Source of the DNA: a virus
Lineage: Duplodnaviria; Heunggongvirae; Uroviricota; Caudoviricetes
DNA: 47,658 nt
Reading direction: 5' to 3' (one strand)
IMG/VR virus record: IMGVR_UViG_3300023371_000089
Coordinates: 64,001-111,658 of that record
The first letter of the stretch is position 1. Each line of letters starts with the position of its first letter. A model generated the notes under the pieces. It did not search any database. It was not told the origin of the DNA and saw nothing but the letters and a program-made list of their open reading frames with translations. Of the stretch, positions 9,439-40,186 are shown one piece after another. Position numbers and translations under genes: made by a program.

Positions 9439-10881
9439 TTAGTTATTTTCACTTGGGTCAGTTGAAAACTCATTATACTTTTCAACTTCCTCAATAATTG
9501 GTACTTCTTCTCCTATTTCTTCTGCTATTTCTTCTGGAGTTGCTTGATAAAAACCTTCTTTTACATATGATTTATTTGAGGCAATCAAGTTTTTAGCTTT
9601 AATATTATCCATCACCACTGCATCCCCTTCAATGTGAGTATTACCATTAACATATAAATCCATTTCTCTCTCAACACCAAAAGTGACACCCTTAAGCGTA
9701 ACTCCAATATTAGGGAGCGAATAAAGTCTTGTCACCTCCGGCATTTCACGAAGCCCCCCACCATCTACACTAAGATATCCGTCTTGTTCAAGATATCCTA
9801 AAAGATGAAATACTTTATCATTTACAGGTTCACCATACCATCCATCAATATCCCCATCTTCCGTGGCACCTTCCTCATAATCATAATCATTTCTATCGCC
9901 TGAAACATCACCCAGTGGTACAATCTCTATTTTACTTCCACCACCAACGATAGTGGTTGGCCCATCATTATTATCATTATTATTACTATTATCGATTTTT
10001 TCATTAAGGTCATCAACGTAAGATTTAAGCCGCTCAAACTCATTTAGTAAAGTATTATACAGACCTTCTATATTACCAATACGCTGAAGAATTGTCTCTA
10101 AATCAAGTTTCGATATCTCGTCTGCCAAATCATCCACGCGCTTACTTAAAGCCTCTAAGTCTGTTTTCTTAGCATATTCTGATAAATCATTAGTATTTTC
10201 ATCCCCCTTTTCTCCCTGAGGTCCCTGAGCCCCATCTTTACCATTCCTGATTACAAACATATATTCAGGAGCATTTTTTATTACTCCTGAATTAGGGTCT
10301 TCCATCGCAGGATTATCTTCCATATATATACCATACACGTCAATATACCCCGGCATACCGGCTCGTACAGTTTCACTTGCAGCCTGATATGTCACACTAT
10401 TAATATCAACCCCATTATTATTATCATCTTTGATAGAACCAAGATAACGAGTTCCTTTAATACCAACACCCCTTAAATCAGCACAATTTTCAGAATCCAC
10501 ATTAAAATACACGTCAGCACTAAGTATATCGGCATTCCCCAAACCCTTCCAATCAGAAATTGTAGTAATTTCATTTTCCCCAATTTGAGTAAGAGCACCA
10601 TTTGTTGCGCCGGATATTTTAGCCAGCATAGCATCAAATGCGTCCTGATATGCTGCAAGCCCCCCTTCAGAATTTTTGCCAAATTTATCCTCAGCCGCAG
10701 TTCCCACAGCACGTAAAAAGTAATCGGTTAAAGGGGTGTTCGACAAGAAACCATATTCCAAACTATACTTCGCTTCAGGGTTATTTTCTGTTTTAGGCCC
10801 CGTACATGCTTCTAACTTGTATGGTGGAAGAATATATGCATATTTATTGGAGTCGAGTCTCCAAGCGTAAGTTACTGCCAT
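9439..10881 (-). CDS. Tail fibre-like protein with short collagen-like Gly-X-Y segment and coiled coil (480 aa)
   Basis: GKDGAQGPQGEKGD followed by a heptad coiled coil (LEALSKRVDDLADEISKL...). Confidence 0.7.
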   Translation of the reverse strand: MAVTYAWRLDSNKYAYILPPYKLEACTGPKTENNPEAKYSLEYGFLSNTPLTDYFLRAVGTAAEDKFGKNSEGGLAAYQDAFDAMLAKISGATNGALTQIGENEITTISDWKGLGNADILSADVYFNVDSENCADLRGVGIKGTRYLGSIKDDNNNGVDINSVTYQAASETVRAGMPGYIDVYGIYMEDNPAMEDPNSGVIKNAPEYMFVIRNGKDGAQGPQGEKGDENTNDLSEYAKKTDLEALSKRVDDLADEISKLDLETILQRIGNIEGLYNTLLNEFERLKSYVDDLNEKIDNSNNNDNNDGPTTIVGGGSKIEIVPLGDVSGDRNDYDYEEGATEDGDIDGWYGEPVNDKVFHLLGYLEQDGYLSVDGGGLREMPEVTRLYSLPNIGVTLKGVTFGVEREMDLYVNGNTHIEGDAVVMDNIKAKNLIASNKSYVKEGFYQATPEEIAEEIGEEVPIIEEVEKYNEFSTDPSENN

Positions 10882-10899
10882 TGTATTATATATTTTATC

Positions 10900-38695: not shown

Positions 38696-38724
38696 CGGTC
38701 ATCAGGGATATATCCCTGATGCCG
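38696..38724 (-). terminator. Hairpin terminator after rpsU
   Basis: Perfect palindrome CATCAGGGATATATCCCTGATG (38700-38721) extended by CGG/CCG; T-rich sequence follows further downstream on the minus strand. Confidence 0.7.
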
Positions 38725-38743: not shown

Positions 38744-38938
38744 CTAATTTTCGTGGTCAAGTTTATACTTGTTGGCATAAATTGCCTTCTTCATCTTTGT
38801 TCTGTGTTCGACAGAAGGCTTAACATATTCCTTCCTTTCTCTAAGTTGTTTAATTAATTTTGTCTGTTGTTCCTTTCTTTTGAATTTTTTGAGGGCTTTC
38901 TCTATTGTATCCCCCTCATTAACCTTAACAATAAGCAT
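38744..38938 (-). CDS. rpsU: Phage-encoded 30S ribosomal protein bS21, Bacteroidota type (64 aa)
   Basis: IEKALKKFKRK...LRERKEYVKPS...KAIY matches the bS21 family signature (ALxxFKR...R..y.KPS). Confidence 0.93.
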   Translation of the reverse strand: MLIVKVNEGDTIEKALKKFKRKEQQTKLIKQLRERKEYVKPSVEHRTKMKKAIYANKYKLDHEN

Positions 38939-38947
38939 TAATATAAT

Positions 38948-38952
38948 CTCCT
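38948..38952 (-). promoter_or_regulatory. Shine-Dalgarno sequence AGGAG of phage rpsU
   Basis: Leader reads TAA-AGAAT-AGGAG-ATTATATTA-ATG (9-nt spacer). Confidence 0.7.
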
Positions 38953-38957
38953 ATTCT

Positions 38958-39767
38958 TTAAAAATCAAAAATATTCTTAAGACTGTTTAATTCAGCCATA
39001 TCATCAAAAGATTTAGCGATTTCATTCCAATCCGATATACCATCAACATCGGCTTTTGTTATCTGATATTTAGGATTATCCTCGCCATTATTGTCATCTT
39101 CAACACTATAATTCTCAGGAGCCACATTCTGCCAATAGTTTTCAATTGACTGATTAAATGGGGCTGATTTCTGTTGACGAAGACTCATCTTCTCTTCAGC
39201 ATTTGGGGCGCGACGTTCAATCTCCTGTTTAAGGGATTCAATGCCCTGATTATTTGCTTCAACCTTATCTTGAAATTGAAGTATGAGGTTTTTCAGGTCT
39301 TTCAGTTCGTCAGAAACCCTTCCAACACCTTTAGCAGTCTCTTTCTGATAACCCGTAAGAGCATCTATGTCAATGACCTCGTCGCCATCTTCCATATCTT
39401 CAATATCCTCATCTTCCTCCGGTTCTTCAGTAGAAACATCTTCACCGCCCTGAGGATTCAGACCTTCAACACCCTGTTCGCCTTCAGCACCACCCATTTC
39501 AGGAGTCTCAGCACCTGTCTGTGGAGCAGGAGCATTTCCCATTGGACTTGTTGATGCAGCATCAGCCATATCCATACCGCCCATCGGGTCATTTCCACCC
39601 TCAGCACCGCCCATTGCAGGGTCAGCAGGGGCTGCAGGGGCGGCACCGGCCATAGGGTCCTCAGTAGGGTCCGCCTCAGTGATTCTTGTTGGAGCAATTG
39701 CCTGTGTATACTCCATTATTCGATTAAATCTATCTCTATAATCCGCTTCAGTCAATATCTTAGCCAT
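38958..39767 (-). CDS. Acidic, largely disordered protein with coiled coil; possible prohead scaffold/core protein (269 aa)
   Basis: Pro/Ala/Gly/Met-rich linker, EEPEEDEDIEDMED tract and heptad region. Function is an inference from composition and position. Confidence 0.65.
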   Translation of the reverse strand: MAKILTEADYRDRFNRIMEYTQAIAPTRITEADPTEDPMAGAAPAAPADPAMGGAEGGNDPMGGMDMADAASTSPMGNAPAPQTGAETPEMGGAEGEQGVEGLNPQGGEDVSTEEPEEDEDIEDMEDGDEVIDIDALTGYQKETAKGVGRVSDELKDLKNLILQFQDKVEANNQGIESLKQEIERRAPNAEEKMSLRQQKSAPFNQSIENYWQNVAPENYSVEDDNNGEDNPKYQITKADVDGISDWNEIAKSFDDMAELNSLKNIFDF

Positions 39768-40178: not shown

Positions 40179-40186
40179 TATAAATA
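40179..40186 (-). promoter_or_regulatory. Putative late-promoter motif TATTTATA heading the operon that ends in rpsU
   Basis: 18 nt before the 40160 ATG. Confidence 0.65.

Follow-up and report, generated by a model that had tools for sequence, protein, structure and literature searches.

[quoted passage not shown]

The window analysed in this work is a stretch of 47,658 nucleotides at the end of a 111,658-bp phage record of IMG/VR, which is 31% complete according to CheckV. Its minus strand carries a small gene for the ribosomal protein bS21, listed here with the features in and around it (positions are those of the window).

38696..38724, minus strand: terminator-like hairpin just past the bS21 stop codon, followed by an A/U-rich tract (fold of −20.8 kcal/mol, z −5.6).
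38744..38938, minus strand: bS21 (rpsU-like) coding sequence, 64 aa plus a TAG stop, the longest frame; assigned from the ORF list, PF01165, TIGR00030, PHROG 21469 and the gapless alignment to 7JIL_z and 9I5V_9.
38777..38779, minus strand: Tyr54 codon (TAT), in register with Tyr54 of F. johnsoniae, which stacks on A1534 of the 16S rRNA.
38813..38821, minus strand: K40-P41-S42 motif, with which the C-terminal domain begins.
38855..38872, minus strand: codons 23–28, E-Q-Q-T-K-L, in place of the cellular F-E-K-T-G-V/I at the junction of helix 1 and helix 2 (24 phage against 80 cellular proteins).
38948..38952, minus strand: AGGAG core of a Shine-Dalgarno (SD) sequence, 9 nt before the ATG (−14 to −10), in the 19-nt gap after the upstream stop.
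38958..39767, minus strand: gene of a 269-aa acidic, partly disordered protein, upstream and co-oriented, conserved beside bS21 in all related loci.
40179..40186, minus strand: TATTTATA motif, placed 18 nt ahead of the first gene (80 aa) in the unit 80 aa, 54 aa, 269 aa, bS21; a candidate phage-specific promoter, not of the host type.

The open reading frame at 38744–38938 (−) is a bona fide bS21. The Pfam profile PF01165 matches residues 4–56 of its product with 52 bits against a cut-off of 27, the TIGR00030 equivalog model gives 49.3 bits (curated cut-off 28.95), and the ORF matches PHROG 21469, 'ribosomal protein S21'. The core of the family (A-L-K-K/R-F-K-R, R33, R35, an aromatic residue at 38, K-P-S/T) and a length within about 55–75 aa are all found in the window protein, and they are invariant or nearly so across its phage clade. 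Among all PDB chains, the best two matches were the P. gingivalis protein in 9I5V, with an E of 9.3e-14, and chain z of F. johnsoniae 7JIL, with 9.5e-12, better by 5 to 7 orders of magnitude than the other solved bS21, the next-best of which had an E of 7e-07. HMMER aligned residues 1–59 on 1–59 of 7JIL chain z and 1–60 on 1–60 of 9I5V without any gap. A Foldseek search of the PDB with the AF2 model (pLDDT 78.7) gave weak bS21 matches only (E at least 0.1, rmsd 8–11 Å); an isolated model of a protein that is extended when bound to the ribosome is uninformative on helix packing and on the geometry of Tyr54.

Relatives of the phage were looked for in several collections. Megablast of GenBank phages with 6 kb around the bS21 gene gave no match, and tblastn found just distant bS21 (36–55% identity) in huge uncultured phages and faecal contigs. 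A scan of IMG/VR with the clade alignment returned distant phage bS21 only (39–61% identity) and no close relatives; the latter were obtained from a search of metagenome contigs encoding the protein. An identical bS21 protein is encoded on a contig of 349,824 bp and close relatives on contigs of 300–306 kb, and the carrier is a jumbo phage of roughly 350 kb. Its DNA is present in runs from animal faeces and gut metagenomes, sheep included; the sequencing-run search gave no RNA runs carrying it.

On the same strand, bS21 is preceded by genes for a 1713-aa amidase-domain protein, a 199-aa protein, two small ORFs and the 269-aa acidic protein, and it is followed by those for a gp32-type SSB, a thymidine kinase, a UvsX/RecA-like recombinase, an NAD-dependent ligase and a 5'-3' exonuclease. 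This gene order is kept in seven further metagenome lineages, which makes eight including the window. There is a variable spot in the otherwise rigid synteny between recombinase and ligase, where L039 has an extra amidase gene and where L035, L036, L038 and L040 (at about 9.2–11.1 kb in each locus) have DUF723/DUF4379 genes, of which the window phage has none.

The phage clade consists of 24 protein clusters with 66–100% identity, and it is monophyletic on a long stem (96/91). In the seven lineages, protein identity to the window is 72–92%, while third-codon identity is just 44–59%. Since third codons have diverged while the proteins stay similar, bS21 is under purifying selection in these phages. 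The best 80 cellular matches all belong to Bacteroidota, mostly gut Bacteroidales and some Flavobacteriales, with an identity to the phage protein of at most about 60%. The patterns for this cellular scan were built from the clade alignment and are therefore biased; the unbiased PDB search agrees with the result. The bS21 tree names no donor lineage, because its branches are long and an alignment of 64 columns is too short.

The promoters and leaders of the phage are of Bacteroidota type as well. TAnnTTTG, the −7 element of sigma-ABfr (consensus from Baez 2019), occurs 31 times in 7.1 kb of intergenic DNA, compared with 12 ± 3.6 times in shuffles, and its density there is four times that in coding DNA. 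Of 18 matches to the full TTTG-N17-21-TAnnTTTG, 11 are intergenic. The leaders of the phage genes are A-rich, with peaks at −13 (0.68), −12 (0.58) and −3 (0.53) and with G never above 0.25; A-13, A-12 and A-3 are positive determinants reported for F. johnsoniae leaders. Pairing with the 16S 3' tail at −6 kcal/mol was found for 7.5% of the leaders of 106 ORFs and for 7.4% of random windows. The ORF set is a crude one (ATG-only, longest frame) in which some starts are wrong, and the SD-less result is robust to that. Thus, four independent lines, i.e., relatives, promoters, A-rich leaders and absent SD pairing, point to a host of Bacteroidota type. Strong SD-like leaders (to −11.9 kcal/mol) were seen in a few other ORFs, such as 1571–1762 (−) of the window and 47496–47690 (+) and 9568–10883 (−) of G000; the translations of the six other ORFs with SD-like leaders, two of them of 63–64 aa, have no obvious common theme.

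In the leader of bS21, AGGAG occupies the place at which A-12 and A-13 are found in the other phage leaders, and there is a U at −3. Its duplex with ACCUCCUUU has −7.3 kcal/mol and ranks 7th among the 106 ORFs, which in the window alone is not significant, as about 3% of random 19-mers pair equally well. It is the conservation across lineages that makes this SD convincing: AGGAG is invariant in the eight lineages, at 7–10 nt from the ATG and with −7.3 to −10.2 kcal/mol, with spacers and flanks that vary, and only 2 of 72 neighbouring genes reach −6 kcal/mol or stronger. The possibility that it is a general property of phage bS21 was rejected: the SD is specific to the clade, and in IMG/VR the leaders of most of the more distant phage genes for a Tyr54-type bS21 are A-rich and without an SD, with L002 and L006 as exceptions.

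In F. johnsoniae, rpsU alone has a strong SD, and its faster translation by bS21-free ribosomes results in autoregulation (Jha 2021, McNutt 2023). Like the phage gene, F. johnsoniae rpsU has an SD in an otherwise SD-less genome, and both products have a weakly basic C-terminal domain. An SD was present in the 25 nt before the start of 18 of the 80 cellular rpsU genes (L042, L044, L047–L049, L051, L053, L057, L058, L060–L063, L092, L098–L100 and L112), 17 of which read AAAGGAGGTG while L099 reads AAGGAGGA; they serve as a positive control for the scan. L112 belongs to Flavobacteriales and the rest to Bacteroidales, many of them from animal gut (Ca. Cryptobacteroides, RGIG MAGs). These SDs in Bacteroidales contrast with the description of Jha 2021, according to which SDs are absent from rpsU in class Bacteroidia. 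We consider the lineages with an SD-bearing rpsU as candidate hosts. The phage SD differs from theirs in being a 5-nt core, much weaker than the extended 9–11-nt match of the cellular genes, and in belonging to a viral gene that is probably transcribed from a promoter of non-host type. Nevertheless, the arrangement that goes with autoregulation of the rpsU type (McNutt 2023; Naeem 2026), an SD before bS21 and other genes without one, is found in the phage, and by analogy its bS21 gene looks wired into the same vacancy signal as host rpsU.

The protein reads K40-P41-S42 and K51-A52-I53-Y54 when counted from Met1, as the first-pass annotation had it. The same annotation had given the sequence of F. 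johnsoniae bS21 correctly, since the alignment with 7JIL chain z has KPS at 40–42, KAAY at 51–54 and F23 without gaps, and the alignment to host and phage bS21 sets that it had proposed places Y54 in register with Tyr54 of F. johnsoniae. Y54 is found in 24 of 24 proteins of the phage clade and in 80 of the 80 nearest cellular relatives, all from Bacteroidota; K40, S42 and A52 are also invariant, or nearly so, in these 24 and 80 proteins. Such a degree of conservation at positions 40, 42, 52 and 54 indicates that the register is due to homology and not to chance. The host proteins of F. johnsoniae (7JIL; Jha 2021, McNutt 2023) and P. gingivalis (9I5V; PMC12123416) share with the phage protein the length, a gapless alignment, KPS at 40–42 and K-A-x-Y at 51–54.

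Ribosomes of Bacteroidia hide the anti-SD with the help of bS21 (Jha 2021). Tyr54 stacks on A1534 at the point from which the 16S rRNA turns its 3' tail towards bS18 and bS6, Ile55 adds a van der Waals contact (Jha 2021), and bS18 and bS6 make most of the contacts with the tail in the published structure. In 30S subunits without bS21 the tail has been found released. Reporters with a strong SD go up 3–5 fold with Y54A or with deletion of residues 43–64 (McNutt 2023). Y54A alone causes only partial derepression in F. johnsoniae (McNutt 2023); therefore, Tyr54 is needed for full occlusion, while its presence is no proof of it. The second hallmark of Bacteroidetes given by Jha 2021, a weakly basic C-terminal domain, is present in the window protein as well: the part after KPS has a net charge of +3 and a pI of 9.6, the means of the 80 Bacteroidota proteins are +2.45 and 9.45, and the aligned 22-residue C-terminal segment of E. 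coli has +7. Genes for bS18 and bS6 were not found in the 111-kb record, which is 31% complete.

Taken at the level of sequence, the expectation that the phage protein would occlude the anti-SD like the host protein, instead of switching the ribosome to SD-dependent initiation, is supported by Y54, the charge, the conserved core and the Bacteroidota relatives, and it fits all the tests save position 55. The opposite mechanism, in which phage bS21 displaces host bS21 and frees the anti-SD for SD-bearing phage mRNAs, was already disfavoured and is scarcely credible. It has in its favour the SD of its own gene only, whereas the protein still has Tyr54 and a C-terminal domain like that of Bacteroidota. 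Moreover, freeing the anti-SD would not benefit the phage mRNAs, since the phage genes have no SD signal above background and have A-rich leaders of the Bacteroidia type.

Position 55 deserves separate consideration. It is Ala in the window protein, a residue that is hydrophobic yet smaller than Val or Ile; in the clade there are 12 Ala, 11 Val and 1 Leu, and in the cellular proteins 70 Val and 7 Ile (77 of 80). As Ala55 takes the place of the Ile55 contact of F. johnsoniae, contact with the 3' tail and hence occlusion could be weaker. A mechanism can be built on this, in which Ala55 and Asn56 (Gln in cells) would hold the tail loosely and give partly SD-competent ribosomes, with positive feedback on the SD mRNA of bS21 itself and on other SD messages. 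It would draw on the fact that Ile55 is a named contact and on the conserved SD of the gene. Yet half of the clade has Val55 or Leu55, Tyr54 is invariant, SD-like pairing in about 7% of the phage leaders equals the background, and the few SD-like ORFs share no theme. In addition, a freed anti-SD would boost host rpsU too. We thus regard this mechanism as quite improbable. Regarding the residues that follow Tyr54, the C-terminal tail A-N-K-Y-K-L-D-H-E-N is as the first-pass annotation described it and conforms to the clade pattern [AV]-N-K-x-[KR]-L-x-x-E-x, but it is less unusual than was implied there, because cellular tails are likewise variable and acidic-ended.

A larger departure from the cellular proteins lies in the N-terminal half. 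Glu was correctly noticed at position 23 instead of the usual Phe, and this E23 belongs to a block of six residues, rewritten at the junction of helix 1 and helix 2 and invariant in the clade. Residues 23–28 are E-Q-Q-T-K-L in the phage, F-D-K-T-G-T in F. johnsoniae and F-E-K-T-G-V/I in most Bacteroidota. E23, Q24, Q25 and L28 are found in the 24 clade members and K27 in 22 of them. Among the 80 cellular proteins (L041–L120), E23, Q24, Q25 and K27 never occur, L28 occurs once and G27 is universal. The positions that are at least 90% uniform in the clade and almost never so occupied in cells are L2, K5 (P or Q in cells), E23, Q24, Q25, K27, L28 and N56. In the AF2 model the helix is still broken at residue 27, where the confidence is moderate, and the loss of Gly27 might change the packing of the two N-terminal helices. 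About half of the more distant phage proteins of the Tyr54 type in IMG/VR have Lys27 as well (T-K and not T-G; L002, L004–L006, L008, L010, L016 and L018–L020). To judge from these sequences, viral bS21 may in general be marked by the loss of Gly27.

This block bears directly on the simplest role that one can conceive for the protein, namely that of a host-equivalent bS21 which keeps ribosomes replete when expression of host rpsU collapses, the 23–28 block and the tail being neutral markers. Full conservation of the core signature and of Tyr54 agrees well with such a role, and the upstream SD is consistent with a simple supply loop that senses vacancy. Furthermore, SD-less mRNAs are translated less well by F. 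johnsoniae ribosomes that lack an intact bS21 (McNutt 2023), so that replete subunits alone would help the SD-less phage genes. However, the constraint on residues 23–28 (24 of 24, with K27 in 22 of 24, near-absent in cells and with an invariant Gly replaced) exceeds what is expected from neutral markers, and the same region is divergent in an unrelated set of phages (Chen 2022). For these reasons we think that mere supplementation is rather unlikely.

The transcriptional context offers some indications on when the gene is expressed. The hairpin just past the bS21 stop is found at the same place, with different sequences, in six of the seven other lineages (L037 is without it), and the fact that different sequences are kept as hairpins at one site suggests a selected terminator. 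The hairpin was missed by the consensus terminator scan, because the U-run starts 5 nt past the stem. After the hairpin and before the SSB gene there is a promoter of host type, with one mismatch in the window. TAnnTTTG stands before the 199-aa gene that precedes the unit, both in the window and in all but one of the seven other lineages; in that one, L037, the annotated TTG start overlaps the motif. The start of the unit that includes bS21 is of another kind: a TATTTAT core lies at the same place, about 18–20 nt before it, in L031–L040, with TATTTATA in six of the seven other lineages and TATTTATC in L035. Judged from this recurrence, TATTTATA may represent a phage-specific promoter class, and the layout suggests that the bS21 unit may be expressed non-early. 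Non-early expression would fit the late expression of phage bS21 reported by Chen et al. 2022 (PMC9723584).

The 269-aa gene is probably co-transcribed with bS21. The N-terminal half of its product is very acidic, rich in Gly, Pro and Met, and disordered; no Pfam or PHROG family matches it, and its Atlas clusters are viral-only and 'hypothetical'. That a strongly acidic protein is always encoded directly upstream could be taken as a hint of an extraribosomal role of the phage bS21, as an RNA chaperone, as a decoy for a host factor or defence sensor, or as a partner of this acidic neighbour, and non-ribosomal associations of bS21, e.g., with the OLE RNP, have been reported. Nonetheless, the conservation of the protein follows the ribosomal pattern (rRNA-binding core, KPS, Tyr54), and we find a role outside the ribosome very unlikely.

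The closest precedent is the study of lake phages by Chen et al. (2022, ISME Commun, PMC9723584). The bS21 proteins of Bacteroidetes phages have there kept an aromatic residue at position 54, which is Tyr in 54 of 61; they diverge at Arg21, Phe23, Asp25, Thr28 and the C-termini, and they are proposed to 'mimic' host bS21, possibly favouring phage mRNA. The likeness to our clade is considerable: Bacteroidetes-like bS21, with Tyr54 in 24 of 24 here; divergence at the end of the N-terminal helix, at 23–25 and 27–28 here; C-termini that are variable between clades and conserved within them; genomes of up to about 330–350 kb; and the same mechanism, i.e., mimicry of host bS21 with the anti-SD kept blocked and phage mRNA perhaps favoured. 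There are also differences. The habitat is animal gut and faeces here and lakes in that work. Arg21 is kept and Gly27 is replaced in this clade, as compared with the lake phages. The bS21 gene is co-oriented with its neighbours in all eight lineages, between the acidic hypothetical and the gp32 SSB, TK, UvsX-like and ligase genes, while that of the lake phages is described as reversed inside a module of TerL, MCP, protease and portal, an arrangement not seen here. Three peptides of 8–9 residues from our protein (N-terminus and positions 18–27) are absent from two supplementary text files of that paper, and its available text contains no mention of an SD before the phage bS21 gene. The reading of Tyr54 retention as occlusion is, then, already published for the lake phages, and the present case is a new example of it and no new principle. 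Specific to it are the 23–28 block with loss of Gly27, Ala55, the gut jumbo phage, the replication-side context and the conserved SD.

Incorporation of a viral bS21 into ribosomes has also a precedent. No other ribosomal protein is encoded by phages as often as bS21, and that of the Pelagibacter phage HTVC008M was shown to enter E. coli ribosomes (Mizuno et al. 2019, cited in PMC9976891), which makes incorporation plausible in general. The case differs from ours in its alphaproteobacterial host and in a bS21 that is not of the Tyr54 Bacteroidota type and involves no anti-SD sequestration.

In our opinion, the best explanation, and a fairly probable one, is that the protein is a functional phage paralogue of bS21, acquired once from Bacteroidota, with host-like anti-SD occlusion and clade-specific modifications. 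The ancestor of a clade of gut jumbo phages of about 300–350 kb would have picked the gene up from a host lineage of Bacteroidota. Its product would bind the bS21 site of the host 30S subunit, either by filling vacant sites or by exchange with host bS21, where Tyr54 and the weakly basic C-terminal helix would steer the 16S 3' tail into the platform pocket of bS18 and bS6. The ribosomes would in this manner remain SD-blind and keep translating the SD-less, A-rich leaders of the phage. By analogy with host rpsU, AGGAG would cause the bS21 mRNA to be preferentially translated by ribosomes without bS21. For the rewritten 23–28 junction, altered handling of mRNA or of bS1 is one possibility, since, according to Chen et al. 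2022, the N-terminal helix is on the side of bS21 that faces the mRNA.

A more elaborate scheme can be drawn from these steps, and we see it as conceivable though doubtful. The phage bS21 would be in it a replacement part that seeks vacancies: an SD mRNA without A-12, A-13 and A-3 would be read mainly by bS21-less ribosomes, its product would hide the anti-SD again through Tyr54 and silence the host feedback, and the surface formed by E23-Q24-Q25 and K27-L28 would bias mRNA or bS1 handling to phage leaders.

The conservation of Tyr54 in a second, ecologically distinct group of phages strengthens the published view that these phages imitate the SD-blind ribosome of the host and do not rewire it. 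We think that this clade is a good test case, as it combines an invariant block that replaces a universally conserved Gly, a conserved SD in an SD-less genome and many sequenced relatives. Together with the existing genetics of F. johnsoniae rpsU, it could serve to address the effect of a viral bS21 on mRNA selection and the use that phages may make of the host rpsU feedback loop.
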